Source of the DNA: Candidatus Latescibacterota bacterium
Lineage (GTDB): Bacteria; Latescibacterota; UBA2968; UBA8231
Direction: 5' to 3'
Length of the DNA: 64,000 bases
NCBI GenBank assembly: GCA_965217585.1
Contig: OZ244561.1
Location: 6,112,001-6,176,000, forward strand
Below are positions 4,852-45,804 of the stretch, in pieces; positions within the stretch are counted from its first letter, which is position 1; every line of letters begins with the position of its first letter. The position numbers and the translations under genes were made by a program. The notes beneath the pieces are model-generated. The model worked only from the letters and a program-made list of their open reading frames with translations. It was not told the origin of the DNA and searched no databases.

Positions 4852-6768
4852 TTGCGAAATTTGTCGATGTGGAGCGCACTGGGCATTGCGGCGATTGTAG
4901 CCTGTGGACAGCAGGAGCCGACTGCCAAAAAGGAGGAATTACCACTGGCCGAGGTGGGCACAGAGTTGATCACGGATCGGGATATCCGCTACCTGATCGA
5001 CAATGTGGCCGAGTGGGCCAAGAGCGAGCAAGAGGGCGACGCCAAGGTCCACGAATACTTGGAGTCGCTAATCAATCGAGCCCTCATTCTCCGAGAAGCG
5101 CGCGCCGGCAAATTAGACCGGAGTCCGGCGTTTGCCAGCGAGGTAGCGACGGCCCTGCGGCGGCGGCTGATACGAGAGATCGAGCAGCGCGCCGTCGAGG
5201 ACCAGGTCTCCATTACCGAGGAAGAAATGCGGGGCATCTTTGCCGAGCAGAACTGGGAGCGCTGGATCAAAATAGCCCATATCGTCGTACCCACCCAAGA
5301 GCGCGCCGAGGAGGCGATGGCGGCTCTGCGGGCCGGTACCCCCTTTGAGGAAGTAGTGCGCGAATTTTCGACCCATTCGCGCACGGCCGCGCTCGGGGGC
5401 GTGAAACCCCAGTATTACAGCCGCTTCCACGCCGTTCCACTGGTGCGCGATGTACTCTTTAGTCTCAAAGTGGGGGAGATATCGGAGCCTATAGCCGTCC
5501 CGCAGGGCTACGAAATTTTCAAGGTTCTGGACGAGTTGCAAGGGTCTTACGAACAAACTAGGGAATTTCTCTTTAAAACACTGTCCGAGGAGCGGCTGGA
5601 CGCCCGCAGAAAGGCGTATGTGGATTCGCTGGCCGAGCAGTTCCAATTGACTCCGGATCCGCACGGCTTGGGCATTCTAATGGAAATCTTACGCAGTGGG
5701 CGGGAGGATCCGGCGACCGGCAAAATGACGTTCCAGATTCCAGACGGTGCCGCCGAGACGCCCCTCTTCAGGTATGAGGGCGGACAGATTGCGCTCGGGG
5801 AAGCCATATTGCTATCCCCGGTCATTCGCCAAGGCAGAGACATATCCGACAGCACGAGAGTGACCCATTTTCTGGAACTCGACGTAGTAATGCCGCAGCT
5901 CATGTGGATGGAGGCAGATAAGTTGGAGCTCGACCGCGAACTCGAAGAATGGGTCAAGCGCAAGGAAGAAGAAGTGCTGATTGTGACCATGCGCCAGATT
6001 GCCACTGCTACCGACGAGGAGATAAGCCAACAAGAGGTACTCGATTACTACGAAGAAACCAAGGACCAGTACCGGACCGCCTCGGAGGTGAACGTGGTGG
6101 AGATCCAGGTGGCCAGCGAGGCCGGGGCCGAGGGGCTGCTCGCCGAGATTCGCGTCCTCTTCCGCCGGGCCTCTCCTTTGATCGATCTGCTCACTAGAAT
6201 GAAACAAAAGCAGCAGGCCGGGCGGGATCTGACCGAAGAGGTGCAGGCGCTGCGGGAGATGGACGACGATCTCGAGGTTCTGGAATGGCTCCGCCAGCGG
6301 CTGGATGAGCGGGGCGGAGTGGAGACGATCTTGGAGGAAATAGCTACGGCATCGAGTCCAAAAGAGTTGGCCGAAGAGTACATCATGCGGCAACTGGCTG
6401 CCACCCGCAGCCTGCGGCCGGGCGCTAGCGAAACAGAGGGGCACTACCATCTCTACTGGTACGAGACGGCGCGCTTTGGGGATTTGGTCGCAGCGGCCTT
6501 TGAGGGGGAGCTCGGTTCGCTCATCGGTCCCATGCAGGTCGGGCCTTCCTATTCTATTGCCAAAATTCTCAGTCGGCAGGAATCAGAAGCGCGTCCCTAT
6601 GAAGAGCGCGAGAGGCAGATAAGAGCCAATATCCGCAAGGAGCGCGAGAGGGAATTGTTCGGGCGCTGGTTGAAAGATCTGCGCACCTCGTACGCAGATG
6701 AGGTGCGCTATTTCGACGAGAACATCGAAAAGTTAGGTCGGGAATTGACCGCGGAGGGACGCGGATAG
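4852..6768 (+). CDS. PpiC/parvulin-type peptidyl-prolyl isomerase lipoprotein (SurA/PrsA-like chaperone)
   Basis: AGGAGG RBS then TTG 4852; lipobox IVAC; LAEVG..IT, IAHIVV...FEEVVREFS...GEISEPI...GYEIFKV rotamase motifs; second degenerate rotamase domain. Confidence 0.82.
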   Translation: MRNLSMWSALGIAAIVACGQQEPTAKKEELPLAEVGTELITDRDIRYLIDNVAEWAKSEQEGDAKVHEYLESLINRALILREARAGKLDRSPAFASEVATALRRRLIREIEQRAVEDQVSITEEEMRGIFAEQNWERWIKIAHIVVPTQERAEEAMAALRAGTPFEEVVREFSTHSRTAALGGVKPQYYSRFHAVPLVRDVLFSLKVGEISEPIAVPQGYEIFKVLDELQGSYEQTREFLFKTLSEERLDARRKAYVDSLAEQFQLTPDPHGLGILMEILRSGREDPATGKMTFQIPDGAAETPLFRYEGGQIALGEAILLSPVIRQGRDISDSTRVTHFLELDVVMPQLMWMEADKLELDRELEEWVKRKEEEVLIVTMRQIATATDEEISQQEVLDYYEETKDQYRTASEVNVVEIQVASEAGAEGLLAEIRVLFRRASPLIDLLTRMKQKQQAGRDLTEEVQALREMDDDLEVLEWLRQRLDERGGVETILEEIATASSPKELAEEYIMRQLAATRSLRPGASETEGHYHLYWYETARFGDLVAAAFEGELGSLIGPMQVGPSYSIAKILSRQESEARPYEERERQIRANIRKERERELFGRWLKDLRTSYADEVRYFDENIEKLGRELTAEGRG

Positions 6769-6856
6769 GATCGGGTGGGAGCATAAGTAAGAATGCCAAC
6801 AATGATTCCACCCTCGCCAATCTATCGCCGCTCAAGCGGAAAAAGAAATAAAAAGC

Positions 6857-6886
6857 TTGATTTTCATCAGTCGAATTGCGTATCCT
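6857..6886 (+). promoter_or_regulatory. Putative sigma70 promoter upstream of family C gene
   Basis: A-rich UP-like tract, TTGATT-18 nt-TATCCT in an AT-rich intergenic region. Confidence 0.45.
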
Positions 6887-7079
6887 ACCTCATAATTATA
6901 CATCTATACATCACGTCGAAATCACCGCTGGAATGTTTCCGGTATAGGTGTAAATAAACTTTTAAAAATCAATGTCTTGTGCCAGAAAGGAGGTGTTCCT
7001 TTTTCGTCGGAGTAAATCAGTCTAGGTCTGGGCTAAGCCCGGACATGTCGCATTGACCTCAACCTTGGAGTTTAAAGCC

Positions 7080-7994: not shown

Positions 7995-8033
7995 TTGTAC
8001 TGCGCAGTGAAGGTTTGGCTGCGCATGATCGCC

Positions 8034-8076
8034 ATGCCGCCATGCCGAGAGTTTCCTCTGGCATGGCGGCATTTTT
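8034..8076 (+). terminator. Rho-independent terminator after family C gene
   Basis: 13-bp stem ATGCCGCCATGCC / GGCATGGCGGCAT followed by TTTT. Confidence 0.75.
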
Positions 8077-8118
8077 GTATACGTGGTAGCACGGGACCGA
8101 AAGGGGTAGGAGGTGCAG

Positions 8119-9864
8119 ATGAGGAGGGATTGTTCAATCTCGCGGATTTACCGGCCCCTGCTGGTGCCGCTCTGGTTGGTGCTGGCGGCGGCAGCGCAGG
8201 CTGCAGATACCCAAGTGATTGGCGGCAGTGCAGGCGGGGAGAGCTGGGAGGAAAGTGCCGCGGCAGCGCCGATCATTGATTTTACCAGCCGTCCCGGATG
8301 GATCTTGCCCAGCTTTATCGATACTACTACCAACATCGCCTTGGGGACGTTAGCGCGCGGTGGCAGGGTGGTTTCGCCAAATGCCCAGGCCGTCTTGCGG
8401 GGCGACAAGGAGACGCTGGCAGCAAACCTGGAGAGCATGGTGGACGGAGATCATCAGACGGCTTTTGAGGTCAAGAACATAACTGCTTCGGGCATTCTCG
8501 TGATCTTCGATCTGGGAGCCCGATTCGGGGTGAATCGCATACGCTTTTTCCCGCGCACCTCTTTTCCGGATGATTTCATGAGGGGGTATGCGCTCTTCAT
8601 CAACGACGGTATTTTCGGCGCTGAAATCGTAGCCGAATCCATCGACGGGCTGCCGACCAAAAATCTCTTCGCCCAGATAGATCAGCAGACCGGCAATAGC
8701 CAGGATACTGTAAACGTGCAGTTTCCCCTGCGCTATGTGCGCTATCTCCTCTTGCAAGCCACGGACAGATCCAATTGGGAAATTGACGAGATTGAAGTCT
8801 TCGGGCAGGGTTTTGTCCCCGAGGCTGACTATTTGTCCCAGGTCTTCGATTTTAATCAACCCACGCTCTGGGGCCAACTGCACTGGGCCGCCGAGGCAGT
8901 GGGACATCCCGAAAAGTCCCGGTTTTTCATCCGCACCCGCAGCGGCAGCAGTCCGTCTCCCACAGAGGAGCCGGACGCCTGGAGCCCTTGGTCCGCTCCC
9001 TACCTTAGCGGAGATACTCCGATTCTTTCGCCGGCACCGCGGCAGTACTTCCAGTTTCGCATGGACTTTGAAAGCGACGGTCTGAGGGACGGCACCGCAG
9101 TGGATTCGCTGGCTTTTGAATTTTCCGATCCAGTAGCGGAGTCCATTGTCGGGGAAATATGGCCCCAGGATGTACCGGTTGGGGTGGATACGACCTTTAC
9201 TTATGCCGTCCAAGTGGTCGGCGGCCGAGGTTTCGACCACTTGGAGATCGATAGCTCTGTTCCGGTGCATACGGTTCGGTCGCTGCACCTCGACGACTTG
9301 GAGGTGGAGAATTTCGTCGCGGAGCCCCACGAGAGCGGCCTAGCTGTGACCTTTCCCCGCCAGAGCGGCAGCCACGATCTGCAGGTGGTTTTCGACGCCG
9401 CGATTTTGCGCTACGAGACGGTTTTCAGTGGGCGCCTGCGCGACAGCCAGGCGGACGGCTTGCCCCAGGAAATTGAAGAAGGAGATGCGGCGGGATCGCT
9501 GCTCGGCGACGATTTGAGCGTGCGGGTGCCGCTGGATCAGGACCCAGTCGTCCACCGGGTGACCGTGGCACCCAACCCTTTTACGCCGAATGGAGACGGG
9601 ATCAACGATCAGGCGATAATCAGCTACGATCTACTGCACTTGATAAACGACGTTCCGGTTTCTTTGCGGGTCTACGACCTAGCCGGAAAACAAGTGGCGG
9701 AATTGCCGGTGGAAAACAACCAGAGTGGGCGTCATCTGGTGCACTGGAACGGCCAGAATGACCAAGGTCGATATCTGCCGCCGGGCCTTTACATCTTGCA
9801 GGTGAAAGTGGCCACGGACAGCGGCACGGTGAGCCATAGCAGTCCTATCGCAGTCATCTATTAG
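8119..9864 (+). CDS. Secreted discoidin-like + WSxWS + FlgD-Ig C-terminal domain protein (family A, subtype alpha)
   Basis: Signal peptide; MVDGD..DLGARFGVNRIRFFPR; WSPWSAPY; PNPFTPNGDGIND...VYDLAGK...WNG...PGLYIL; ends AVIY. Confidence 0.75.
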   Translation: MRRDCSISRIYRPLLVPLWLVLAAAAQAADTQVIGGSAGGESWEESAAAAPIIDFTSRPGWILPSFIDTTTNIALGTLARGGRVVSPNAQAVLRGDKETLAANLESMVDGDHQTAFEVKNITASGILVIFDLGARFGVNRIRFFPRTSFPDDFMRGYALFINDGIFGAEIVAESIDGLPTKNLFAQIDQQTGNSQDTVNVQFPLRYVRYLLLQATDRSNWEIDEIEVFGQGFVPEADYLSQVFDFNQPTLWGQLHWAAEAVGHPEKSRFFIRTRSGSSPSPTEEPDAWSPWSAPYLSGDTPILSPAPRQYFQFRMDFESDGLRDGTAVDSLAFEFSDPVAESIVGEIWPQDVPVGVDTTFTYAVQVVGGRGFDHLEIDSSVPVHTVRSLHLDDLEVENFVAEPHESGLAVTFPRQSGSHDLQVVFDAAILRYETVFSGRLRDSQADGLPQEIEEGDAAGSLLGDDLSVRVPLDQDPVVHRVTVAPNPFTPNGDGINDQAIISYDLLHLINDVPVSLRVYDLAGKQVAELPVENNQSGRHLVHWNGQNDQGRYLPPGLYILQVKVATDSGTVSHSSPIAVIY

Positions 9865-9882
9865 TATCAATAGGGGGGCCAT

Positions 9883-12609
9883 ATGACCAGATGGAGTGCG
9901 CGTGCGGGCCGACAGCTTTTCCTCACAACTGCGGGTATCGCACTACTGTTGAGTATTGCAGCAGTACCCGACGGAGCCGTAGCCCAAGGACTCGATTATG
10001 GCCACAGATTGGGCCTGCAGCGCGGCGGCGAGGTCTCGTACGAACCAGTGGGTTCGGGCGTGCTCTTTGACGCCTTGGACCCAGCCGTGCGGCGCTGGTA
10101 CGTGCCGCAGGAACTCTTCCTGCTCTATCGCTGGAAACAATGGGAGTACACCAATTATGCCCGGGACCACTACCAGCGTTATTTGAATCCCGATATAGAG
10201 GGGGATTATTTCTACGACCTGTATGGGTCTTTCATCACCAAAGGATGGCTCATCTACGATTGGCGCCAGCAGCAGCCGCAGCAGTTCGGCAGCGCCATTT
10301 TCAAAGATCCGCGGTTTGGATCGTGGTTCAACCGGCTGGTCATCTCCTCGGACCGCAGCGGCCAGTACCACATGGCCCTGACCATTGGCGAACAGATCCG
10401 CACCACGCTGACGCCCATGACTTTTTCCAAGCCGGCTTTCGACGGGGTGCAGATGGATCTCCAGTCCGACAAGTACGCGGCTACGATATTGATGTCGCGC
10501 ATCAGCTCGCCGGGCAGAGCGGGCACCATAACAGTGGAAGCGACCAATAGCACCAACCTCTTCGGCTTTAGGGGAACGACTCAGATCGGCGATTTTGTCA
10601 ACGTGGGTGCCACGTATGTCAACGCCCATCATTCCCAGACCCTGATAGAGAGCCTCGAAGGCGACCCCATAAGCGGATCCCTGACCGTGGGACAGAACCT
10701 CGAACCCATCAGCCAGCTCTTCGTCCGTCTGAGCGATGATTCACCCACGGATCGCGAAGGTGGAGCCGCGCTGTTTTCCCACGATATCATCATCGAGGCC
10801 GAGACCGAGGTTGTGGTTGTAACAGATGACGGCGAAGAGAAGATCGAAATTCGCAAAGAGACGGTGCGCGGCAGCGAGATCGGCTTCAGCGCCCTCATCA
10901 ACGGGGGGTTTCGCCGGCGGGGTTTTCTCGCCGCCGACGGCAGCGAGCAGATCGTGCTGACCTATGATTTCACCAGCGAGAACCGCTCGTACAACGGCCC
11001 GGATCTCTCCACCATCCGCAAGGTCACCATCGAATTGGCCGTAGCCAACGACTACCGCATTGAGATGGGGTCGGATCGCCAGACCAATCTGCCCGAGCGC
11101 CAGCCGGTCTTCCTGACTCAGGCGCGGGCTGCGGGCAATGTAAAAGACGGCTCCAATCTGAGATTGGTGCGCTTTGATTACGGTTTGCCCACGGGCAACG
11201 ATATCTTCGGCGGCACCATCGAAGTAAACGATCTGCTGGGCTTTGATCTCTACGCCGAGTTCGATCGCAGCCGGCGCTTCCGCAGATACCCCAATCGCAA
11301 ATTCACCGAACATCTCATGGACTCCGACGAGGCTAGTGCTTGGATGATCAATCTGTCGAGGCGGGGCTATGCCTTCTTCCTTTTTGGTGAAGTCTACAGC
11401 ATGGATTACGACTACGGCACTACCGGCTTGCTCACGGAAGCGAACGGGGACATTGACTACACCAACGAACGCCGGTTTTTCTACGAATTCGTCGAGGACA
11501 ACGACGATCAGGATCGCACTCCCGATTGGCAGCGCGTCAACCAAAGAGGGCCGGACCGGGAAATTTTTCCAGGCTGGGACGAGAACAACGATTTCATCTC
11601 CGATTTTAACCAGAACGACACCGACTTCCGGCCGAATTACATTCCCGATTACGAAGAACCTTTCTTGCGCTACAGCGTCGATCGCCCCGAGTTCCTCTTC
11701 GGAGTGGACATGAACAACAATTTCTGGATCGATCGCTTTGAAAACGACGAAGAGCCCGATTTCCCCTACGACCGCGACCGCCGCGGAGGCAATATCTATG
11801 CAGGTGCTCACATCGTGCCTGGGATGCGGGTGACGGTTGGTCTCAAGCAGGAGCGCACGCTGGCCCGCGACCGGGATGAAAACAGCAGCTACGGGATGTT
11901 CACTTGGGATCGGGATATAGCCGGGTTGGGCCGGCTGCGGGTCTTCGACATGGTCAAGCTGGTCGAGGACACTATCCCGGACGATATCGTCCAATGGGTG
12001 CAGCCGGCGGGTACCGAGGCGAATCTGCAGCGGGTTCCAGACCTGTTGGCCGCTCCCAATACGTGGATAAATTCCGCCTATATCGGGTTTGACTACACCG
12101 GGAGTGCCAAGCTGAAACTGGTCAACAAAGTGAAGTACGATGTCTGGCATCAGCGGGAGGAGCAGGCGGACTTCCGCGACAAGTACCAGTTTTTCGGCCT
12201 CATTAACAAGGCTGAGTACCGGCAACAGTGGGGACGCTTTCGGCTCTTTCCCAAGATCAAAAATGAACTGCGTTTCGAAGCGCCCTTGCTGAGCAACGAG
12301 CCGGTGCGAAAAGAGGACACCCTAATCCTGTTCCTCATTGGCCAGACTCCTATACTGACCGGCTCGGAAGTACAGGTGGGCGTCGAGTACACCCTATTCA
12401 ACCAATTCGAAGAAGACGCGAAAGCCCTAGGTCTACAGGAAGATTTTCAGGAGTTGGTGCTGGCGGTCCAATACTCCAATACAGGCGCTTATTTAGGATA
12501 CGCTTTGACCACCCAGTTGGGTGTGAGAATCCGCCGCATAGACGAAAAGGGACAAAATCCCTCTACGGGCATATCGCAGTTCATTACGGTAATCGCGGGA
12601 CTCGATTAA
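9883..12609 (+). CDS. Large secreted/outer-membrane protein of unknown function with Asp/Asn-rich putative Ca-binding block (family B, copy 1)
   Basis: Signal peptide; YxPQEL..Y.WK.WEYTNYAR; TTLTPMTFSKP.F.G.Q.D; DNDDQDR.PDW, FPGWDENNDFISDFNQND; amphipathic beta-strand-like C-terminal region. Confidence 0.65.
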   Translation: MTRWSARAGRQLFLTTAGIALLLSIAAVPDGAVAQGLDYGHRLGLQRGGEVSYEPVGSGVLFDALDPAVRRWYVPQELFLLYRWKQWEYTNYARDHYQRYLNPDIEGDYFYDLYGSFITKGWLIYDWRQQQPQQFGSAIFKDPRFGSWFNRLVISSDRSGQYHMALTIGEQIRTTLTPMTFSKPAFDGVQMDLQSDKYAATILMSRISSPGRAGTITVEATNSTNLFGFRGTTQIGDFVNVGATYVNAHHSQTLIESLEGDPISGSLTVGQNLEPISQLFVRLSDDSPTDREGGAALFSHDIIIEAETEVVVVTDDGEEKIEIRKETVRGSEIGFSALINGGFRRRGFLAADGSEQIVLTYDFTSENRSYNGPDLSTIRKVTIELAVANDYRIEMGSDRQTNLPERQPVFLTQARAAGNVKDGSNLRLVRFDYGLPTGNDIFGGTIEVNDLLGFDLYAEFDRSRRFRRYPNRKFTEHLMDSDEASAWMINLSRRGYAFFLFGEVYSMDYDYGTTGLLTEANGDIDYTNERRFFYEFVEDNDDQDRTPDWQRVNQRGPDREIFPGWDENNDFISDFNQNDTDFRPNYIPDYEEPFLRYSVDRPEFLFGVDMNNNFWIDRFENDEEPDFPYDRDRRGGNIYAGAHIVPGMRVTVGLKQERTLARDRDENSSYGMFTWDRDIAGLGRLRVFDMVKLVEDTIPDDIVQWVQPAGTEANLQRVPDLLAAPNTWINSAYIGFDYTGSAKLKLVNKVKYDVWHQREEQADFRDKYQFFGLINKAEYRQQWGRFRLFPKIKNELRFEAPLLSNEPVRKEDTLILFLIGQTPILTGSEVQVGVEYTLFNQFEEDAKALGLQEDFQELVLAVQYSNTGAYLGYALTTQLGVRIRRIDEKGQNPSTGISQFITVIAGLD

Positions 12610-12658
12610 CGCGCACCAGTGCGCGGCCCTCGAACGGGGTAAACCTGGAGGTAGCGGC

Positions 12659-14569
12659 ATGAAAAGAACGATGCCGATTTCGCTGCTTGTAGCCGCTTTG
12701 GCCTTGGCCATGCTGTCGGGGCAATCCAGTGCCTTGGAGATTTTCCGCATTGGTGGCGAAAATTTCCCGCCGCCAGAGGCGTCGGATCCAGCGGTCACTT
12801 TTACCTCAGTGCCGTGGAGTGATTTTCTGGAAAAGGATGGTTTTGACGACGAGGCGTTTGCCGAGGACATCCTGCGGCCCCTCTTCCTGACTCCAGAGGA
12901 CAATATCGCCCTGACCAGTCTGAGTCGCGGTGGCGGGCCTTTGTCGCGCGGCTGCGGGGGGTACCAGTTTCTCCTCGACGGTTGCAATGCTACGCGGATG
13001 GTCGATGGGGATCTTAGTACCTTTTACCTAAAGCAGCCCTACGGCTATGTATTTCAGTCCGGGGACCGCTCGAGTTGGCTCATCTTCGATTTGGGGGGGG
13101 CCTTCTCCGTAAACCGGGTTCGGCTCATCAGTACGCCGGGCACCTCCCTTTATCCAGACAAGCTCCTAGTCACTACTAGCACGATTCCCCAGATTGTAGA
13201 GCGGGGCTCATACGGCGGCGTGGATCCCGGCAGGTCGGTTTTTTCCATAGTAGAAAATACCCAGGATAGCATAGAGGCCGTCTTTCCCACTATGCGGGCC
13301 ACGGAGGTGGGCCTGCTGATCACAGTGACGACCAGCAGAAACATGGAAATATCCGAGGTGGAGATATACGGAGAGGGCTTTGTCAACAGGGCCTCCTACG
13401 TCAGCAAGCTTTTCGACTTAGAGGAACCGGCCATTTTGGGCGAGATGCGCTGGCAGGGCCGGAAAGACCCGCAGGTCCGAATCGACATCCATTCGCGTTC
13501 CGGCAAGACTTTGGACCCCAATATGTACTGGCGCAACACCGGACGGGGGGACGAGCTTTCCCGCTTTGACGAGAATGGGAAGCTGCTGGATGCAAAGGGC
13601 TATGCCGGCTTGAAAACCGGCGAAGCTGCGGAAATTACCTACGATATCGAGAACTGGAGCTTCTGGTCGCCCCCCTATGAGTTCGCCGACAGCCTCGGCA
13701 CTTCCGTGATCTCCCCAAGCCCCAATAACGTCTTCCAATTCCGCGTCGATTTCCAGCCCGATGCCTTGCAGGGCGGGGAGGTAGATTTCGTCGAGTTTTC
13801 GGTCACCAAGCCTCCTTTGGCCCAAAATGTAGTGGGAGAAGTTTACCCTCCCGAAGTGCCTTTGGGAGAGGTCTCGCAATTCACGTACACGATCTCTCCC
13901 ACCATGACGCCGGACCACTCTGGTTTCGACCAGATCGAAATAGCGACCCCCTTTGGCTTTGCCGGTGTCGATTCGGTGCGGGCCACTGGTCTAGTCGATT
14001 GGTCTGTCCAGGTCGAAAGCCCGGATTCGACCCTCTTCTCCGTGAAACTTTCACCGCGTCGGGAAGTGGGCGATCTGGGCGGGCCGATCGAGGTGTACTT
14101 TCGCGCACCAGTGTTGCGCTACGGCACTCCATTCGACGGCTGGGTCCGGGATTCCGACCGTCCCTTGGAATTGGCGCAGCGGATCAACCCGGGCAATGCC
14201 GCGCCCGAATTAATAAGCGAAACCCTCTCGGTGCGCACTTCGCTGAGCGCGCGTCTGCTGGCGGACCTACTGGTCGAGCCTAGGGTTTTCAGCCCCAATG
14301 GGGATGGAGTGAACGATATCTCCAGATTCTCTTTGAATCTGCTACAGGTGACGGAAAATGTACCCTTGAGACTGGAAATTTTCGACCTGTCCGGTCGGCT
14401 GTTGAGCCAGCAAGAAGGGTTGCACGAGAGCGGCCGATTCAGCTTTTCGTGGAACGGTAGAGACGATCAGCAAGAACTAGTAGCGCCCGGCCTCTATATG
14501 TACCGCATCGTCGTGGAGGCCAAAAACGGGGACGATCAGCAAACAGGCACCATTGCAGTGGTTTACTAG
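12659..14569 (+). CDS. Family A secreted FlgD-Ig protein, subtype beta
   Basis: Signal peptide; mature start LEIFRIGGE..PPPE; WSFWSPPY; FSPNGDGVND; ends AVVY. Confidence 0.75.
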   Translation: MKRTMPISLLVAALALAMLSGQSSALEIFRIGGENFPPPEASDPAVTFTSVPWSDFLEKDGFDDEAFAEDILRPLFLTPEDNIALTSLSRGGGPLSRGCGGYQFLLDGCNATRMVDGDLSTFYLKQPYGYVFQSGDRSSWLIFDLGGAFSVNRVRLISTPGTSLYPDKLLVTTSTIPQIVERGSYGGVDPGRSVFSIVENTQDSIEAVFPTMRATEVGLLITVTTSRNMEISEVEIYGEGFVNRASYVSKLFDLEEPAILGEMRWQGRKDPQVRIDIHSRSGKTLDPNMYWRNTGRGDELSRFDENGKLLDAKGYAGLKTGEAAEITYDIENWSFWSPPYEFADSLGTSVISPSPNNVFQFRVDFQPDALQGGEVDFVEFSVTKPPLAQNVVGEVYPPEVPLGEVSQFTYTISPTMTPDHSGFDQIEIATPFGFAGVDSVRATGLVDWSVQVESPDSTLFSVKLSPRREVGDLGGPIEVYFRAPVLRYGTPFDGWVRDSDRPLELAQRINPGNAAPELISETLSVRTSLSARLLADLLVEPRVFSPNGDGVNDISRFSLNLLQVTENVPLRLEIFDLSGRLLSQQEGLHESGRFSFSWNGRDDQQELVAPGLYMYRIVVEAKNGDDQQTGTIAVVY

Positions 14570-14593
14570 ATCGAAAGGGGTAGAGCATATTTT

Positions 14594-23918: not shown

Positions 23919-24148
23919 ACAGGCATCCCCATCTGACAAAATACAATGCAAGCGGCAGTAATATACAGCAGTAAACTGCCCCGAGCCAGCTACAGAAAAG
24001 CGACTGGAGCAGAGCAGCCCGGAATCGCTTCAACTGTGCGGGCACAGGCATTTTTCGCGTGTATCGGGCCGGTAAAAAACGTATATTCAACCTTCGGGTG
24101 GAAGTGAGATTTGGGTTTATCCCTCTCTTGCAGCGGAGGTGTTAAAAC

Positions 24149-32708: not shown

Positions 32709-32789
32709 GGAACCCTCCTGAGGGATCGCCTGGCCGTCGCCGGTCTCTCGAAGTGCGGTCTGGTGCTTGGCACGGCGCGTCTCCAACGG

Positions 32790-35629: not shown

Positions 35630-37819
35630 CTAATACACCACGGCTACAGTCCCGCTCATTTCTTCACTTCCGGTATCGGTGTCGACCGCCAGGCTGAACA
35701 GGTATATCCCGGGCGGCACCACCTTCTCCGACAGGTCCGTGCCGTCCCAACGCCACGAGTACCTGCCGCTTTTGTAGTTTTTCACCTCTTCTTTGACGAG
35801 CCGGCCCGCAAGGTCGTACACCCGCACGGTAGTTCTGGCCCCGTCGATCAGCCTGGTGAGATCGTAATTAATCGTGGTGTGGTCGTTGACCTCATCGCCG
35901 TTGGGCGTGAAGACCTCGGGGCTAGCCGCGACATTGATCAGGAAGCTCCCTTTTATCGGCGCCTTTACCACCAGGTCCGCCGGATTGCGCAGGAGCGCGC
36001 TGCCGCCGCTCACTTCGAGCGCGTTGCCCCCGGTCGTCTCCTGGGGAAAGCCTGCCGGATCGTCGGGCAATGCCCTGCCGGAGAACGCCGTTCCGTTTCG
36101 CAGTACGGTGCCCTTGAAGTTTATGCGCAGGAGCGCCGGATTTCCCGCTTCTGGACGGCTGTCCCGTATCCCGGGGAAACGGATCCTGAAGCGATCGTCC
36201 GCTACGAGATCTATGCTGAATTTCCCTTTGACCAGAGGCCCGGCCAGATCGGCGAGCGATTCCTGCGAGAAATCCTCGGCCATGCGGGTCCCGTCCGCCA
36301 GGGACAACTCGACGGCGCCGATCGATGCCACCTGCACGGGGGTGGTGACTTCGAACGAACTGAATCCCAGATCGGAAGCCGTTCGTATATCGGGCACGAC
36401 GGCGTATGAAAACTCCGTGATTTCCCCCAGCTCGGTTTCGCGCGGGGATATCTCGGCTATGACCTCCCGGGCCAGGGACTGGGTGGAAAAATCGAAAGAC
36501 AGGGAGCCGACACCCTTGGCGGAAAAGAGGTCTTCACTGGAGAAATCCACCTTGAACTGGAAGTAGCGGCGCGCTCCCGGCGAGAGGATTTTGACGCCCC
36601 CCCGTCCGGCTTCCATCTCTTCCGCCGTCACGGCTCCGGCGGGAGAATAAGGCGGTGTCCACGGACTCCAATCCTGGATATCGTCGCGCACTAGGCCTTT
36701 TTCCGCGGTCTTCAGTTTTCTGTAATCCTCCTCGGTGAGGGCTATCTCACTCCTCTGTTTTAGGGACAGATCTTTGAACAGGACCAGGGCTTTCCGCACC
36801 CCTAGGCCGGGATGGTCGAGGAGGGTTGTCAATTCCCTTTCATCCGACCCTTCGTCGAATGCGTCCGCCTTCTTCCAGGGCACGGACTCTTGATCGAGAT
36901 CGGTCCTGACGCGGTTGAATACTACGGGCGTGTCGTCCATGCCGCTTCTCGTGCTTATCTCAAAGCGCGACCTGCGGGGATCGCCCAGACTTTCCTCTAC
37001 CCAGCGCAGGTTTCCCCACAGGGCCAGACGCTGGTCCCGCCCCAGCTCGAACACGTCGGACAGGTAGGACGCGACCGGCACGAAACCCTCGCCAAAGACC
37101 TGGACTTCGGCTATTTCAAAGCCGATGGTCGTGTGCGACTTGATGCGGATGAAGCGGACGTACTGGGGGTCTATCGGCAGGTCCACCACTGGATCTTCGT
37201 TTTGCAGGTCGAGCCGGACGCTGGTGAATATCGGCAGTCCGCCGCTCTGCGTCTCCTTCCTCCCGTCGTTGAGCAGGATCTCGTAACCCCTCAAGTAGTC
37301 GTCCTGAAAAGGGAGGTTGGGAGCGGGGAAATCCGGATGGGCGTTGCGCGGAAAAAAAGCGATGCGGCTCACCCCGAAGCGGGCCCCGAGGTCGAGTTGG
37401 ACGACCACGCCGAGGGCGTTGATCCGCCGGATCGAGGTGCTCTTTCTCTCGAAGGCGGTACTGCCGTTATCGTCTATGGCGGTCAGCAGTTCGGCATCGA
37501 GGTTTTCCAGCAGAGTGGGCGCTGTTACCGCACCTCCTCTGTCGAGGAGTCCCAGCGCGATGTTCTCCGTCACATCCGCGCTGGTGGGGAATATCCAGTT
37601 TTCTCTGAAAGCGAAATTGACGACCCCTCCAGGGGTATTTCCGCGGCCCACTTCTTGGGGACCTGCCACGAATACGGGGGCGATGTGTCCGCCGCCCTCT
37701 TGCCAGGGCCGCCCTCCTTCTCCGCCGAGGCGGATGGTGTCTCCCCGCGCTTTGCCGATCGATCCGGGGAAACCTATCAAGCCGGTCAGGATAACCGGGA
37801 CTAGACGAGGAATCAGCAC
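35630..37819 (-). CDS. Family A secreted FlgD-Ig protein, subtype alpha
   Basis: GAAAGGA RBS then GTG 37819 giving a signal peptide; NIALGLLDRGG, DLGARFGVSRIAFFPR shared with 8119-9864; WSPWTPPY; FTPNGDEVND; ends AVVY. Confidence 0.74.
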   Translation of the reverse strand: MLIPRLVPVILTGLIGFPGSIGKARGDTIRLGGEGGRPWQEGGGHIAPVFVAGPQEVGRGNTPGGVVNFAFRENWIFPTSADVTENIALGLLDRGGAVTAPTLLENLDAELLTAIDDNGSTAFERKSTSIRRINALGVVVQLDLGARFGVSRIAFFPRNAHPDFPAPNLPFQDDYLRGYEILLNDGRKETQSGGLPIFTSVRLDLQNEDPVVDLPIDPQYVRFIRIKSHTTIGFEIAEVQVFGEGFVPVASYLSDVFELGRDQRLALWGNLRWVEESLGDPRRSRFEISTRSGMDDTPVVFNRVRTDLDQESVPWKKADAFDEGSDERELTTLLDHPGLGVRKALVLFKDLSLKQRSEIALTEEDYRKLKTAEKGLVRDDIQDWSPWTPPYSPAGAVTAEEMEAGRGGVKILSPGARRYFQFKVDFSSEDLFSAKGVGSLSFDFSTQSLAREVIAEISPRETELGEITEFSYAVVPDIRTASDLGFSSFEVTTPVQVASIGAVELSLADGTRMAEDFSQESLADLAGPLVKGKFSIDLVADDRFRIRFPGIRDSRPEAGNPALLRINFKGTVLRNGTAFSGRALPDDPAGFPQETTGGNALEVSGGSALLRNPADLVVKAPIKGSFLINVAASPEVFTPNGDEVNDHTTINYDLTRLIDGARTTVRVYDLAGRLVKEEVKNYKSGRYSWRWDGTDLSEKVVPPGIYLFSLAVDTDTGSEEMSGTVAVVY

Positions 37820-39870: not shown

Positions 39871-40019
39871 TTTTCACTGACTCTCCTTGCCGCACGACGA
39901 TTCTGCCGGACTGCGCTGCGCCTGAAGATATATGGCAGGTTAGGACGGAGGTCAAACCGTCGGCGGAGCCGCGCCTCAGCTCCGCCGGACTCGCGTGCCA
40001 GGTCCTGTGGGCGGATGGA

Positions 40020-40049
40020 TTGACACGCCGCCCGTTGGGGTTGTACAAT
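40020..40049 (+). promoter_or_regulatory. sigma70 promoter upstream of oxidoreductase
   Basis: TTGACA-18 nt-TACAAT. Confidence 0.65.
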
Positions 40050-40161
40050 GTCGAGGTGGGCCGGCCGGGAAAGGGTGCTGCAGAACGTAGCCCAGCCGAT
40101 CCCGAGACTCAGTCCCCAGTAGACAACGCAGATACCCACCAAAATTCGAGGTGATTGGATT

Positions 40162-41184: not shown

Positions 41185-41267
41185 CAGGCCGACTTCTCCG
41201 GTCCGCGATCTATGACCACTGATCCGTCCGGGAACAAAAGTCGATTGTGACGATGAAGCGAATCTCA

Positions 41268-43835
41268 ATGAATGGATTGAGCCTCATTCTCTATACCCTG
41301 CTACTCAGCGCCACGGTCTGGGCCCAGGGCTATCGCCTTGAGCCGAACCAGTTGGTCATCAGCGAGAGCGACTGGCCGGGGTGGAATTTCCCCGCAGGCA
41401 GTGTGGATTTTAGCGCCGAAGGGGTGCGGCCCCATTTTGTGCGGCGGCAGATCAATGCCGCGCTGAATGCGGGCGCTTTCAGTCGCGAGGACGTGACCGG
41501 GGGCATCCGACGGGCGGGGACCAATTTCGCCGGGGCCGCGCAGCTCATGGACGGTCTGGAAGAAACCTACTGGGAGCCGGAGCTGGCCGCGCCGTTGCGC
41601 GACTGGTGGGTCGAGGTGGATTTGGGCCGGGTGGTGTGGGCCGAGAAAGTGGTAGTGAAATTTGTCGCCGAAGGGGCGGGCGATCCGTTTTTGCAGTTCA
41701 AGGTGCTCACCTCCAATGGCGATGAAGCCTTCCAGGGTAGTGAGAGCCTGAACTACCGGGTGGCCGGTCGCAGCGAGGGGTTGAATAAGACGCAGCGGGT
41801 TTTCGAATATGCTCTGCGTCCTTTCAAGTCGGCGGATCCGGGTTTGAGTGGAGATCTGATCCAGTATGTGCAGATTGTGGCCACGGCCAGCGATGGCCGT
41901 CGTGGGGCGGAGGTCAGCGCGTCTGGTTGGGAGGGCTTGGCGGCGGCGGATCGGGGGGATGTGCTGTATTTCCGCCGGGAGTCGTCGGGGGTGGAGCGGG
42001 AGGTGGCGCAGGAGGAATACGAGACCATAAGCGATGCCCAGTTGCAGGGTCCGATCCGTTATTATCGTTCGGAGCGTCCTCGGTTGGCGGAAGTGGAGGT
42101 GTGGACGGTGGGGGAGAATATTGGTTTGGGCTGGAAGGAGCGCGGGGGGTCGATCGAGGGATTTGGGGAAGCGGGCGGACAATCCAATGCAGTCGACGGC
42201 GATTATACCACCGTCTGGAGTGCAGAAGCGGGATTTTCCACCAAGGGCTTGGGCGGTCGAGATGACGATTTCACTGTGTTGATCAAGAACCGGGATCGGG
42301 ACCTCTTATTGGACCTGGGCACCTGGTACTGGGTCGATCGCGCCTTTATCGTCTATGGCAGTGCCACATTCCCCAATTATGTGCTCAATTTTTCGGATGG
42401 CAGTCTGGCACCCGATGGCAGCCAGATCTTTACCTCCGTGGTTGCGCGCGGCAGAGACGATGTCACGCTTGGCAGCGAGGCCCGTGCGCCCGCCGGGTCG
42501 CTGCCGACGAACACGTTCATGCAGGACAATATCTTCTCCTCTATCAAGGGTCGCTTTTTCAGGTTCGACTATCGCGTCGTCACTACCGGGTTGATCCGTT
42601 CTGGTATAAAGGAGCTTCTGCTCTATGGCTCTGGTTTTCTGCCGCAGGTCACCCTGCAAACGCCAGCGATCGAGTTGGGAGATACCCCCCGCATCCTTTC
42701 CACCATCTCCTGGGAGGCCCAAACGCCGCCCGACACCCAGCTACAGATCCGCACCCGAACCGGGAACCGACTCACCGTGGACAAGCATTTCTACGACAAA
42801 CAGGGCGTTGAAGTGGACGAGGCGGCCTATCGCAAGATGCTGTCGTTTCTGCGCGGGGATTCGACGGTCGCCTTTGTGCCCGACGAGGCGGACTGGAGTC
42901 CGTGGAGCCAATTCTACGAGCAACCCGGCGTGGCCATCACCTCGCCCAGTCCGCGGCGCTATATAATGATTGAGGCTGGCCTGCTCTCGGACGATCCCAA
43001 CCAATCCGCGGTGTTGCGCAACCTGAATATTGGTCTGAGAGATCCATTGGCCCACCAAATTCTCGGTGAAGTAACGCCCCGCACAGCCCAACAAAGCGGT
43101 CAACCCGAGGAGTTCACTCTGTTGCTGACGATCCCGCCCAATGAGGAGGGTTCGTCGGGTTTGGGATTCGATCAGGTGCTCTTTGAAGTGCCCCCGAGCG
43201 CCGAAATGGAGTTGGTGGATGTGCGGATGGGCTTGGCCGCCGACCTGACGGCGGGGGGCGGTCAGGTGTATGGGGCGGACGAGCTGGAGGTAAAGGCCGG
43301 GTCTGATTCGTTGTGGGTGCTCCTGCCCGGGGTGGTGCAGTCGGCCGAGTCTCAGGTGGTGCTGCGATTTTCGAGTGTGTTTTATCTGGTGAGCAATGCG
43401 TTTCTGGTCTCGGTGGGTCTGGGGGAGGAGGCTGTGGTGTGGCAGCGGGTGGACGCGACGGCTTCGGGGGAGGGGCTGACGGTGCTGACGCCGGTGGTGG
43501 GTGGACTGTTAGGCGATCTGGAGGTTGTAGGGAATCCATTCACGCCGAACGGAGATGGCATCAACGATGCGGTGAAATTCGTCTTTCCCATATTTAAGAT
43601 GCCGGGTCAGACGGCGCTGGTATTGGCGGTCTACGGTCTCGATGGGGCGCTAGTGCACCGTTCGGCGCAGTCCGTAGCGCACGCCGCTGGTGTTCAGGAG
43701 GTGAGTTGGGACGGCCGGGACCGGGATGGAGTGCTGTTGCCGCCTGGCTTGTATATCTGCCGGGTGGGTCCAGAGGTGGACGCAGAGAGTATCGGCAAAT
43801 CTACAGTGACCACCGTCGTGGCCAGTGTGTACTGA
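41268..43835 (+). CDS. Family A secreted FlgD-Ig protein, subtype gamma; near-duplicate of 14594-17146
   Basis: Long stretches identical to 14594-17146 at DNA and protein level; ends ASVY; ATG 41268 chosen by alignment. Confidence 0.78.
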   Translation: MNGLSLILYTLLLSATVWAQGYRLEPNQLVISESDWPGWNFPAGSVDFSAEGVRPHFVRRQINAALNAGAFSREDVTGGIRRAGTNFAGAAQLMDGLEETYWEPELAAPLRDWWVEVDLGRVVWAEKVVVKFVAEGAGDPFLQFKVLTSNGDEAFQGSESLNYRVAGRSEGLNKTQRVFEYALRPFKSADPGLSGDLIQYVQIVATASDGRRGAEVSASGWEGLAAADRGDVLYFRRESSGVEREVAQEEYETISDAQLQGPIRYYRSERPRLAEVEVWTVGENIGLGWKERGGSIEGFGEAGGQSNAVDGDYTTVWSAEAGFSTKGLGGRDDDFTVLIKNRDRDLLLDLGTWYWVDRAFIVYGSATFPNYVLNFSDGSLAPDGSQIFTSVVARGRDDVTLGSEARAPAGSLPTNTFMQDNIFSSIKGRFFRFDYRVVTTGLIRSGIKELLLYGSGFLPQVTLQTPAIELGDTPRILSTISWEAQTPPDTQLQIRTRTGNRLTVDKHFYDKQGVEVDEAAYRKMLSFLRGDSTVAFVPDEADWSPWSQFYEQPGVAITSPSPRRYIMIEAGLLSDDPNQSAVLRNLNIGLRDPLAHQILGEVTPRTAQQSGQPEEFTLLLTIPPNEEGSSGLGFDQVLFEVPPSAEMELVDVRMGLAADLTAGGGQVYGADELEVKAGSDSLWVLLPGVVQSAESQVVLRFSSVFYLVSNAFLVSVGLGEEAVVWQRVDATASGEGLTVLTPVVGGLLGDLEVVGNPFTPNGDGINDAVKFVFPIFKMPGQTALVLAVYGLDGALVHRSAQSVAHAAGVQEVSWDGRDRDGVLLPPGLYICRVGPEVDAESIGKSTVTTVVASVY

Positions 43836-43923
43836 GAGTCTAGCGCAAATTCCTCCCGGCGTTGCCGCTTTGAGCAAGGGCGACCATTAAAAGGAATCGT
43901 GTGGTTTCCTCGACAGGCACCTT

Positions 43924-45804
43924 TCAGTACGTGGCATACAAGACGCCGGTTTTTTCGACCTTTTCCCGGTCGGCATCAACCGAAACCCGATACAGGTAAA
44001 TCCCTGGCGGCACCAAGCCGCCGGCCTCGTCCCGACCATCCCACGCCCGCTCGTACTCGCCGATCCCATCCGCGCCCGAATACACTTGCCGCACTCGGCG
44101 ACCCGACAAGTCCCACACCTCCACCGTCACCTGCGCATTGCCCGTAATCTCCAAGACGTGATAGAAGATGCCTATCCCGTCGTTGCGGCCATCGCCATTG
44201 GGCGTAAAAATGGTCGGCTCGACTCGCACCTGCAACAGCCTCTGCTCCTGCGCGGCGGTGACCACCGACACCCGGTTGCCCTCGTATTTCGCCGTAGCGT
44301 CCCCCGCATTGACCCCCTGCGGCACCTCCAAAGGCTGGTCGCTGTCCGACACCTGCGCTGCAAAGATTGCTCCGTAGCGCAGCACCTGTGCGGCGAAGTC
44401 GACCTCGACTAGCGTTCCCGAGTCCTGCTCCTGGAGGCGTGGGAAACTGACCGCCAGCCGATGCGGCTCCTCGGCTTCCACTGTAAAGGCCACAGGCGCA
44501 TCGCCGATGCGCACTGCCTCCACCGCGCTGATAATCGAGGAGGTCTCGATTTCTAGCTGGTCAAAGCCGACATCGCCTGAGTGAATCGTCGGCCGCAACG
44601 CATAGGTGAAGGACGATTGTTGCCCTACTTTTGCTTCGACAGGCCAAACCTCGCCCACTAGGTTCGTCGCCACCGGCTCAGAGGCGCGCAACTCCACGAA
44701 ACCCACCCGGCCGCCGGCGTTTTCACGGGGCAGAAAATCGACTTTGAACTGGAAGTAGCGTCTGGGGCTCGTCGATACCACCGGAGTGCCGCTGCTGTCG
44801 GCAAAGTTATAGGGTGCCGACCAAAAGGTCCAGTGGTCGAGGTCGTGGGTGATGCCGGCCCGTTCATTGAGTTTGAGACCGTTGTAACCAGCGCGACTCA
44901 CCTCGGCTTTGCCGCCGCGGCCGGTAAAGCGCCAGAACACGTCCGCATCGTCGTCTAGGCCGCTACGGGTCTGGATGAGGACCTGGGCTCCGGGATCCTG
45001 AACCCCGGACCAGCACAGGTCTCCCCAGGCCATGGGCCGCTCGAAATCGATGACATCGGAAATATAGGTGGCCTGTTTGACGAACCCCTTGGCGTAGACT
45101 TCTATCTCGTTCACTTCCCAGTCCGTGTTGTGCTCGGCCAAGGCCACCTGGACAAACTCTACTGCCTCGTGCGATGGGATGGGAATGTCGAGGATTTGCT
45201 CCCGGTTGTCTCTCACTTCGATAATCCAGGGCGATTTCGGCGGAACGATGCCGTAGTTGACTATGGGTCGCGGGCCGATGTGGACGCGGAGGATGCCCAC
45301 GGTTCGGCCTGGGTCGGTAAACCCGGATATCACCCGAAGCCGGTCGATGTTGTAGAGACCGCCTAGGAAGATATTGGCCGTGCCCGCCCGACTGAAATCA
45401 TCGGTGCAGGCCCCGGATCTGATACTGTGTTCGGCGCACAGATACTTTTCCGCCAGCCAGAAAGTACCCGTATCACCATCCCACACTTCTCTATTTATAT
45501 TGGCCCTTAAATGTGCCCCTCCTTTTTCTTCGATTCCGGGTGCTATGTTGAAGTCTGGATTGCGTTTGAGGGGCTGGATACCGGCACTATCCACGTCCAA
45601 GTCGATGATTTCCCCATGAGGTTCGGCATCGAAATCCATCCAGCTCAACTGTCTGAAGTCCACCCCGTCACGGCCTTCCTCAGGAGGTTTGGGCCGATCT
45701 TCGCCGCCGAACCGGTAAATGGTCAGACCCGAGGCCGGGCCAACCCAAAAACCGATCACCCAAGAAAAAACCCAGAATAGAGAAAGGAAGCGTGCTACTT
45801 TCAT
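43924..45804 (-). CDS. Family A secreted FlgD-Ig protein, subtype beta
   Basis: Signal peptide; LTIYRFGGE..PPE; VWDGD; WTFWSAPYNFADS; FTPNGDGRND; ends YATY; closest to 26683-28581. Confidence 0.76.
   Translation of the reverse strand: MKVARFLSLFWVFSWVIGFWVGPASGLTIYRFGGEDRPKPPEEGRDGVDFRQLSWMDFDAEPHGEIIDLDVDSAGIQPLKRNPDFNIAPGIEEKGGAHLRANINREVWDGDTGTFWLAEKYLCAEHSIRSGACTDDFSRAGTANIFLGGLYNIDRLRVISGFTDPGRTVGILRVHIGPRPIVNYGIVPPKSPWIIEVRDNREQILDIPIPSHEAVEFVQVALAEHNTDWEVNEIEVYAKGFVKQATYISDVIDFERPMAWGDLCWSGVQDPGAQVLIQTRSGLDDDADVFWRFTGRGGKAEVSRAGYNGLKLNERAGITHDLDHWTFWSAPYNFADSSGTPVVSTSPRRYFQFKVDFLPRENAGGRVGFVELRASEPVATNLVGEVWPVEAKVGQQSSFTYALRPTIHSGDVGFDQLEIETSSIISAVEAVRIGDAPVAFTVEAEEPHRLAVSFPRLQEQDSGTLVEVDFAAQVLRYGAIFAAQVSDSDQPLEVPQGVNAGDATAKYEGNRVSVVTAAQEQRLLQVRVEPTIFTPNGDGRNDGIGIFYHVLEITGNAQVTVEVWDLSGRRVRQVYSGADGIGEYERAWDGRDEAGGLVPPGIYLYRVSVDADREKVEKTGVLYATY

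Follow-up and report, generated by a model that had tools for sequence, protein, structure and literature searches.

A conserved envelope gene cassette built around a new outer-membrane barrel family in Latescibacterota

Introduction

Two kinds of described surface system come closest to the genes considered here. SusC/SusD systems of Bacteroidota are encoded in polysaccharide utilization loci (PULs), and such loci normally carry glycoside hydrolases, lyases or peptidases. In Flavobacterium, a gene for cargo of the type IX secretion system (T9SS) with a type B C-terminal domain (CTD) is followed by a porP/sprF-like gene, SprB and its adjacent PorP/SprF-like barrel SprF being the example. Latescibacterota are a widespread and uncultured phylum. 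The DNA that is set against these systems is a stretch of 64,000 nt, called the window throughout, from a Candidatus Latescibacterota bacterium (assembly GCA_965217585.1, contig OZ244561.1, positions 6,112,001 to 6,176,000), and it lies inside a single-contig genome of 7.32 Mb. In the window lie two and a half copies of an envelope cassette that is conserved throughout the phylum, the core of which is a gene pair, A followed by B, together with C and usually P. The letters A, B and C stand for three protein families, P for a peptidyl-prolyl isomerase (PPIase), M for a DUF6785 membrane protein and S for a further family of membrane proteins.

An earlier note on this DNA, made from its letters alone, had proposed a repeated envelope system that was as yet undescribed. 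This has held up, in that literature searches found no description of it, supplementary files and subscription journals lying outside their scope. The same searches returned nothing relevant on DUF6785, on polysaccharide utilization together with the outer membrane in Latescibacterota, or on type IX secretion in Latescibacter. For uptake across the outer membrane, non-specific porins were assumed in a genome analysis of the phylum from 2015 (PMC4454575).

The cassette in the window

The first copy lies on the plus strand. It opens with P1 (4852..6768), a SurA/PrsA-like parvulin PPIase and probable lipoprotein (...IVAC; Pfam Rotamase_2 2.2e-17, Rotamase 4e-12), of which the frame opens at 4675 and the lipoprotein signal peptide begins at 4867. 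The next gene encodes C1 (7080..7994), predicted from a structural model and Foldseek to be a secreted protein of the CBM9 fold, with a histidine after the predicted signal peptide and a TAVE..WGxIK tail. Then comes an A-alpha protein (8113..9864) made up of a signal peptide, a discoidin-like domain, a beta-rich middle and a T9SS-type C-terminal domain (Pfam FlgD_ig 6e-9, CHU_C 6e-8). Its stop is 18 nt from the start of B1 (9883..12609), a protein of 908 aa that is predicted by an AlphaFold2 model, Foldseek and VIA-align to be an outer-membrane beta-barrel of a new family. Two putative T9SS-type cargo proteins follow, A-beta (12659..14569; CHU_C 1.1e-8, FlgD_ig 4.5e-7; BLASTP) and A-gamma (14594..17146), the latter with an N-terminal F5/8 type C (discoidin) domain (F5_F8_type_C 2.2e-7, FlgD_ig 4e-6). 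M1 (17319..19313) is a polytopic inner-membrane protein with DUF6785 and DUF6784, distantly related to the oligopeptide transporter (OPT) superfamily (Pfam 3e-120 and 9e-32; hydropathy), and the accessory neighbour S (19314..21881) is a polytopic membrane protein fused to a spermine/spermidine-synthase-like domain (Pfam Spermine_synth 6e-11). Short gaps separate the plus-strand genes from P1 through S.

In the second copy, most genes are on the minus strand: P2 (38146..39870), another parvulin PPIase (Rotamase_2 1.7e-27, Rotamase 1.7e-19); an A-alpha gene (35630..37819; CHU_C 1.4e-9, FlgD_ig 2.7e-8) directly upstream of B2 with a 41-nt gap; the barrel paralogues B2 (32790..35588; 49% BLASTP identity to B1) and B3 (29901..32708; 44-47% identity to B1 and B2), which form a tandem pair with B3 second; C2 (28665..29600), again with the CBM9-fold assignment, a histidine after the signal peptide and a WGRIK tail (BLASTP against C1, E 4e-31); and the DUF6785 and DUF6784 membrane protein M2 (21894..23951; Pfam 4e-132 and 1e-28, OPT 5e-6). 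An A-gamma gene (24149..26671; CHU_C and FlgD_ig over cut-off, BLASTP) and an A-beta gene (26683..28581; FlgD_ig 6.6e-11, CHU_C 1.4e-8) lie between M2 and C2 on the plus strand. The half copy consists of an A-gamma gene on the plus strand (41268..43835; Pfam and BLASTP) and an A-beta gene on the minus strand (43924..45804; FlgD_ig 9e-9, CHU_C 2e-8). Position 43924, which the earlier note had given as the place of that A-beta gene, is the stop end of a gene that reads 45804..43924. Every gene that it had listed is an open frame and lies at most about 100 nt from where it had been placed, the choice of start codon being the only difference.

The paralogy of the two parts lists was likewise borne out by an all-against-all BLASTP comparison, which counts eight A, three B, two C, two PPIase and two DUF6785 proteins in the window. 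The three B proteins (9883-12609, 32790-35588 and 29901-32786) share 44-49% identity over their full length, the C pair (7053-7994 and 28665-29600) 30% (E 4e-31), the PPIase pair 28-35% (E 2e-35) and the DUF6785 pair 42%. Among the eight A proteins, three subgroups can be told apart. By far the closest pair in the window is formed by the A-gamma proteins at 14594-17146 and 41247-43835, with 86% identity over the full length, which points to a recent duplication.

Scale in the genome and conservation in the phylum

Hidden Markov models (HMMs) built from the window proteins were run against all open reading frames (ORFs) of at least 120 aa in the genome at E<=1e-5. They recover 81 B, 47 C, 45 P, 78 M, 10 S and 264 A-like genes (171 of these at E<1e-20), which together occupy 1,121,124 nt or 15.3% of the genome. 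The B genes are distributed over about 60 diverged arrays, and gene strings such as PCABAAM, CAAABPM, ABCAPA, pABBCAA and ABABA are found. Within 10 kb of a B gene lie 37 of the 47 C genes, while 1000 random placements gave a mean of 8.2 and a maximum of 18. The corresponding figures are 33 of 45 for P (random mean 8.0), 154 of 264 for A-like genes (48.6) and 36 of 78 for M (14.3). Chance repetition of the parts list is ruled out by this clustering across the whole genome. Immediately upstream of B, on the same strand and with a gap of less than 400 nt, stands an A gene in 49 of the 81 cases; in the others there is another B (21, tandem barrels), no family gene (9), or a C or P (2).

The arrangement recurs in other genomes. 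A pattern scan with one genome per species yielded 537 confirmed loci, of which the best 80 were used, each consisting of B and up to 10 kb on either side, with some contigs being shorter. Their record titles name Latescibacterota/Latescibacteria and Gemmatimonadetes/-ota, with one each of Handelsmanbacteria, Planctomycetota and "uncultured bacterium". All 80 loci contain A, 68 contain C, 56 P and 36 M, and in 77 of the 80 an A gene stands directly upstream of B on the same strand. The subtypes PCABAAM, CAAABPM and ABCAPA recur among them as orthologous sets.

A sample of 151 genomes of the phylum was searched at E<=1e-10 for B and M, E<=1e-8 for C and E<=1e-30 for A-alpha. B was found in 95 genomes, C in 93, A-alpha in 80 and M in 137. 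All four are present in each of the 63 genomes of the organism's own family (f1). In the 51 genomes of the sister families f2, f3 and f4, B and A-alpha are found in none, C in one and M in all 51. Each of the 13 genomes of family f10 has B and C; A-alpha was missed in them, where the B matches are weak too, and M likewise has 0 of 13. B and C agree in 147 of the 151 genomes (both in 92, neither in 55, B only in 3, C only in 1; tables counted by hand). A, B and C thus share a common phyletic pattern of which M is independent, so that A, B and C make up the core and M counts as a frequent neighbour. P belongs to a family too generic for phyletic tracing; it is the usual companion of the core.

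The earlier note had read the repeat as a functional unit rather than chance, and the gene order kept in the 80 loci together with the single phyletic pattern of A, B and C agrees with this. It had also counted the DUF6785 membrane protein among the linked families and seen in it a dedicated inner-membrane transporter. Of this linkage, the part on A, B and C stands: these three co-occur across the phylum, and the membrane protein does not follow them. Its phyletic independence from B rules out M as a core subunit and leaves a dedicated transporter out of the definition of the system.

Family B, a large outer-membrane barrel

B1, B2 and B3 have no match in Pfam or NCBIfam, nor do three separate pieces of B at E<=10, and a profile of 41 B sequences finds nothing among the sequences of the PDB. 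A search of the Atlas with B gives unnamed clusters only, the nearest named one, DUF6029 (0.89), being below the level that counts. B has more than 1000 relatives in a protein collection clustered at 90%, all of them unnamed or "hypothetical", and in a library at 50% identity its representative clusters number 1021 at E<=1e-3, with 738 left at E<=1e-10 and 348 at E<=1e-30.

In the AlphaFold2 model (mean predicted local distance difference test score (pLDDT) 64, predicted template-modelling score 0.63), about two dozen long antiparallel strands run from around residue 150 to the C-terminus, with a beta-sandwich insert at about 278-415. Residues 22-159 and 535-627 are left unfolded. Across the 81 paralogues of the genome, the best conserved parts are not the predicted barrel strands. 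They are residues 561-640, within an Asp/Asn-rich segment of about 535-640, and parts of the N-terminal region (about 40-160). The beta-sandwich insert is the most variable part. Foldseek returns large or generic outer-membrane barrels only, at E 6e-9 to 1e-3, including SlpA of the S-layer deinoxanthin-binding complex (SDBC; 6e-9), MtrB (1.7e-7), LptD, ushers and TonB-dependent transporters; the query-normalised template-modelling (TM) scores of the ten best rows are 0.15-0.28. VIA-align against 48,161 chains reaches a plateau at Z 10-12 over porins, Omp85 proteins, ushers and TonB-dependent transporters. Since there is no sequence relative and the barrel matches are generic, B is best described, on the predicted structure, as an outer-membrane beta-barrel of roughly 900 aa in a family without a described relative. 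The outer-membrane component that the earlier note had seen in B is consequently recovered by the AlphaFold2 model, by Foldseek and by VIA-align.

On residues 22-160 of B there is no Plug or TonB_dep_Rec match, even at E<=10. The genome has 25 Plug domains, none in the window, and a single SusD match (PF07980), at 5.216 Mb and outside the window. The independence from SusCD that had been suggested is therefore supported by the missing Plug domain of B and by that one SusD match. When the complex of B (residues 22-908) and the A-alpha C-terminal domain (residues 478-583) was predicted, each of the two runs scored 0.00, the mark being 0.32; this result counts neither way.

Family A and type IX secretion

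All eight A proteins of the window begin with a signal peptide, and all eight end in a domain that reaches the gathering score of Pfam CHU_C, FlgD_ig or both, CHU_C doing so in six. In the four A proteins that were scanned, the NCBIfam models for type A (TIGR04183) and type B (TIGR04131) CTDs stay below their cut-offs and allow no call of a subtype; the C-terminal end of the PorU model matches the same stretch, likewise below cut-off. Among PDB sequences, two A proteins matched FlgD alone, through this C-terminal domain. Further upstream in the proteins, F5_F8_type_C passes its cut-off in two A-gamma proteins, falls short of it in the third, and is weak in A-alpha (E 0.016) and A-beta (E 0.15). 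For the N-terminal 450 residues of A-alpha, the closest named Atlas cluster (score 0.94) is one in which 70% of the members have F5_F8_type_C.

Elsewhere in the genome there is a SprA homologue (SprA_N 2e-22, 80 bits, over cut-off; open frame of 2153 aa) and a PorU (627.5 bits, over cut-off), directly adjoined by a PorV-like gene (153.8 bits, below the cut-off of 250). Given their sorting-type C-terminal domain and the SprA and PorU of the genome, the A proteins are best read as T9SS-type cargo. The earlier note had recognised no T9SS core gene. This is correct for the window itself, all eight A proteins of which do carry a T9SS-type sorting domain. The separation from type IX secretion that it had implied is not upheld, in view of these domains and of the SprA and PorU in the genome.

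Long A-like arrays of up to nine genes in a row without B occur at 6.80-6.85 Mb and 3.63-3.66 Mb of the genome, and one such array adjoins a tandem set of genes for PD40 propellers that bear the tail described for family C below. A secreted protein of 811 aa at 47913-50348, just past the third A pair of the window, has a weak discoidin match (E 0.0014) and is without a T9SS-type C-terminal domain; it adjoins a TPR protein (46219-47874).

Family C, its histidine and its tail

The C proteins of the window have no match in Pfam, and C1 has none in NCBIfam. The AlphaFold2 model from a 30-sequence alignment (pLDDT 79.8) is matched by Foldseek to the carbohydrate-binding module CBM9 of 1i82 (E 2.4e-10, probability 1.00, TM(target) 0.75) and 7nwo (E 2e-9, TM(target) 0.68). 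Heme-binding relatives of the fold, the gamma subunit of ethylbenzene dehydrogenase and NxrC, also match and are ranked lower. PF06452 is carried by 3 of 72 C homologues, and a C profile touches a beta-xylanase chain in the PDB, 7nwn, at E 0.1 only. Going by the model, C is a secreted protein with a CBM9 fold.

Two histidines are invariant in the 30 sequences: H20, the first residue after predicted cleavage of the signal peptide, encoded at window positions 7137 (C1) and 29535 (C2), and H134, which is part of a DxDH motif. Inspection by eye finds a histidine straight after the signal peptide in about 40 of the 47 genome paralogues, and a regular expression finds it in 51 of 63 full-length homologues. 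A first-residue histidine paired with a second one is the signature of the histidine-brace copper site. From their conservation, the first histidine and the DxDH of C may form a metal site of a histidine-brace-like kind or a cofactor site. The fold of C is CBM9/DOMON-like and not that of lytic polysaccharide monooxygenases or AA families, and a literature search found nothing that joins a histidine brace with CBM9.

At the other end of the protein, the tail TAVE-xx-[ST]WG-x-[IL]K (window positions 7950-7994 and 28665-28710) is shared by 42 of the 47 paralogues and, in the protein collection, by 54 of 63 homologues. A loose regular expression detects a tail of this type in 42 further ORFs of the genome, of which roughly 30 look genuine, these being small secreted proteins of unrelated folds. 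Ten of the tail bearers outside family C were scanned and comprise four PD40 propellers, one WD40 propeller, two proteins with CBM9_1 (PF06452; one above, one just below cut-off) and three without a match. The tail looks like a modular C-terminal sorting or docking tag.

Companion proteins and neighbouring genes

P is a parvulin and a probable lipoprotein. Rotamase_2 (64 and 97 bits) and Rotamase (47 and 71 bits) are above their cut-offs in P1 and P2, and SurA_N_3 is below, as a SurA-like similarity at the N-terminus. A lipoprotein signal is seen in most of the paralogues shown and in 25 of the 45 of the genome by a crude lipobox expression.

M1 and M2 match PF20581 with 402 and 442 bits and PF20580 with 110 and 100 bits, and each has at least ten hydrophobic segments. 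A match to OPT occurs in M2 only and is borderline (25.9 bits for a cut-off of 25.8). DUF6785 proteins are massively multiplied, with 78 in this genome and, at first look, 25-68 candidates per genome in the phylum. This extends to the sister families without A, B and C, where they must have other partners. The S family has ten paralogues in the genome, several of them beside DUF6785 genes. In the window, large fusions of a polytopic membrane part with a spermine/spermidine-synthase-like domain are found at 19314-21881 and 53612-56833, with 29% identity over the domain.

The neighbourhood of the cassettes was surveyed through 355 non-family ORFs that flank B in the 80 loci and form 164 clusters. 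The most recurrent are FG-GAP/UnbV_ASPIC (37), FGE-sulfatase-like (11), an unannotated cluster (10), solute-binding proteins (SBP_bac_1, 8) and TPR proteins. A Pfam tally of 127 further flanking representatives gives TPR 7, PhyH 7, MR_MLE 5, sulfatase 4 and parts of ATP-binding cassette (ABC) systems 3-4, and sugar-acid dehydratase-like genes also flank the cassettes. Proteins with FG-GAP/VCBS-type repeats are encoded at window 58132-61725, at L036:14364-16382 in one of the other loci, and in relatives; the UnbV_ASPIC domain occurs in loci of other genomes.

Among the remaining genes of the window is one for a DUF4838/GH20b-like protein at 51693-53666. Ahead of the first cassette, an ABC ATPase with a TOBE domain (3777-4838) follows a gene at 1693-3576 whose product combines fn3-like and leucine-rich repeats (LRR) with a region like leishmanolysin (peptidase M8), a eukaryote-like mix. 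The 1.4-kb gap between the divergent P2 and A-gamma genes contains an ORF of 340 aa on the plus strand (40162-41184) that belongs to no family, overlapped by a minus-strand ORF of 430 aa. This minus-strand ORF (39976-41268) was rejected as a gene on account of its odd composition, the lack of a family match and its overlap with the likelier plus-strand frame. No RNA family of Rfam is present in the window. A scan of it for promoters and terminators gave sites no more frequent than in shuffled sequence.

A possible function and its alternatives

We infer, with about even confidence, that the cassettes might be T9SS-fed systems for capture and uptake at the cell surface, analogous to PULs. P would help the A proteins, and perhaps B, to fold in the periplasm. 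The T9SS would then export the A proteins, which would be retained on the outside of the cell, either next to their cognate B barrel or on it. The substrate bound by A and C would be a polymer, glycans or glycoproteins being the likeliest, with C as an accessory binder or possibly a catalyst. Fragments would cross the outer membrane by way of B, with no TonB plug involved, and neighbouring carriers, often the OPT-like DUF6785 protein and sometimes ABC systems, would take them across the inner membrane. As with the PULs of Bacteroidota, the substrate would differ from one to the next of the roughly 60 diverged B arrays. This interpretation draws on the number and divergence of the copies, on folds of the binding type, on neighbours concerned with catabolism and transport, and on the scarcity of SusCD systems in the genome. 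That A and C are binding proteins, as already proposed from the letters alone, is in keeping with the carbohydrate-binding-type folds indicated by Pfam, Foldseek and the Atlas neighbours.

Several observations weigh against capture and uptake. B has neither a Plug domain nor a recognisable TonB box, so no source of energy for import is evident, and the order A then B mirrors that of T9SS cargo and anchor barrel, not that of susC and susD. No glycoside hydrolase, lyase or peptidase is found among the 10 most recurrent neighbours or among the 25 commonest of the 139 Pfam families in the 127 flanking proteins. Uptake itself, as the earlier note had it, is accordingly a conjecture: those 25 families include no glycoside hydrolase or peptidase, and no interface between the proteins was demonstrated. 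Of the 78 M genes, no more than 36 have a B within 10 kb; M is present in all 49 searched genomes of f2 and f3, all without B, and was not found in any of the 13 f10 genomes, which have B. GldL and GldM (TIGR03513, TIGR03517) gave no match in the genome, a weak result as the controls were silent too, and a regulator was not identified. Genes were called naively as the longest ORFs, and the count of 264 A-like genes at E<=1e-5 may take in proteins that were matched through the C-terminal domain only. RNA-library contigs from three studies (four runs) lie on C, A, B and A of the first cassette with 95-100% identity; being contigs, they indicate presence in RNA libraries and do not prove transcription, as DNA may have been carried over. 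The C-gene contigs have the top word depth in three of the four runs, a measure that cannot rank genes, and stretches of the first cassette that no contig covers, such as 5247-5893 in every one of the four runs, do not argue for silence.

The order of A and B raises the possibility that B is a large analogue of PorP/SprF which holds the A proteins as adhesins or as a coat, so that the diverged copies would present variable surfaces toward a host, particle or phage and would not import nutrients. We regard this as the main rival, possible and somewhat on the unlikely side; it is compatible with uptake, and the two are not exclusive. It would account for the A gene immediately upstream of B in 77 of 80 loci, the order known from Flavobacterium, and for CHU_C, a type B sorting domain, which six of the window's eight A proteins match at the gathering score or better. 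PorP_SprF (PF11751) is not matched in the genome (in a search whose control was silent), the best Foldseek matches of B are to the S-layer-anchoring barrel SlpA, and the genome is rich in LRR, TPR, FG-GAP and discoidin repeat or adhesion domains. The peaks of B conservation in the N-terminal region and the Asp/Asn-rich segment would fit contact with a shared partner, either the conserved CTD or the T9SS. Display is harder to reconcile with the NCBIfam type A and type B CTD models, both of which stay below their cut-offs, and with the transporters and catabolic enzymes adjoining the cassettes; C and P would have no obvious role in pure display, and the family is found in genomes of many record sources and not of a single habitat.

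Capture and uptake could also take more particular forms. In the boldest one, the cassette would be a polymer-harvesting machine specific to the phylum and independent of TonB and SusCD: discoidin proteins displayed by the T9SS would capture the polymer, B would be the import pore, and C, in place of the missing hydrolases, would be a new oxidative enzyme of the histidine-brace type (copper or another metal) or a carrier of a cofactor, while the TAVE..WGxIK tail, a C-terminal tag so far overlooked, would sort or dock C and some 30 other small secreted proteins at the outer membrane. So specific a combination we hold to be unlikely. Quite unlikely, too, is the harvesting of peptides or proteins, with A binding a proteinaceous matrix, B passing oligopeptides, P acting as a periplasmic peptide shuttle and the OPT-like M importing them. 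M is indeed a distant member of the oligopeptide-transporter superfamily (OPT 5e-6, 25.9 bits where the cut-off is 25.8) and directly follows P in the common subtype CAAABPM, P has its SurA-like N-terminal similarity, and discoidin domains bind collagen in animals. However, no peptidase family is among the commonest neighbours, M is phyletically uncoupled from B, C has the fold of a carbohydrate-binding module, and the flanking genes include sulfatases and FGE-sulfatase-like and sugar-acid dehydratase-like genes. Finally, traffic through B might run outward, the cassette building the envelope by exporting a surface polymer or by helping to insert A. FhaC, PelBC, an usher and a polysaccharide secretin, all secretion barrels, are among the tied best VIA-align matches of B, and P would be a dedicated chaperone. 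We judge this very improbable: sets of glycosyltransferase, polymerase and flippase are not among the recurrent neighbours, roughly 60 diverged arrays are hard to square with a single export task, and the structural matches are all generic, tied at Z 10-12.

Relation to known systems

The cassette is built around a new barrel family, and neither Pfam nor NCBIfam has a model for B or for C of this type. Roughly one seventh of a 7.3-Mb genome is devoted to this one repeated cassette. If uptake is its function, it would be a second, independent solution to the problem that SusC/SusD solves in Bacteroidota, and it would tie nutrient capture to type IX secretion. If it is display, B would represent a new class of cargo anchor. 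Either way, A, B and C provide a marker set for the ecology of the phylum, and proteins that can be tested.

At the level of single proteins, likeness to known families goes as far as the fold. The best Foldseek matches of B (6e-9 to 1e-4), the SlpA barrel of the S-layer deinoxanthin-binding complex of Deinococcus, MtrB, LptD and ushers, are comparable in size and strand number; yet identity is 7-10%, there is no match at the sequence level, and VIA-align ties them with ordinary porins, so the modelled likeness is one of fold class and not of family membership. TonB-dependent transporters differ from B in having an N-terminal Plug and a TonB box inside a barrel of 22 strands, and their structural matches are no better than those of porins. 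C has the same fold as CBM9 (1i82, 7nwo), and some of its homologues carry PF06452, but it is a secreted stand-alone protein and not a module of an enzyme, and it has its first mature histidine, the invariant DxDH and the TAVE..WGxIK tail.

As an arrangement of genes, the cassette resembles type B CTD cargo and PorP/SprF in that a gene for CHU_C-type cargo directly precedes that of an outer-membrane barrel, in a genome with SprA and PorU. It departs from that pair in that B is about three times as long as the PorP_SprF profile (273 positions), has no PF11751 match and contains two large extra conserved segments, that several A proteins, C and P travel along, and that the NCBIfam CTD models stay below cut-offs in A. 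From SusC/SusD PULs it differs by a barrel without the Plug or TonB-dependent receptor domain and with no SusD-like lipoprotein beside it, by binders that appear to be T9SS cargo instead of lipoproteins, by the order of binder then barrel, by a dedicated parvulin, and by the lack of any CAZyme family among the commonest neighbours. With the same PULs it shares many diverged copies per genome, a barrel accompanied by adjacent candidate surface binders, folds of the carbohydrate-binding type, and a neighbourhood that includes transporters, sulfatases and sugar-acid enzymes.

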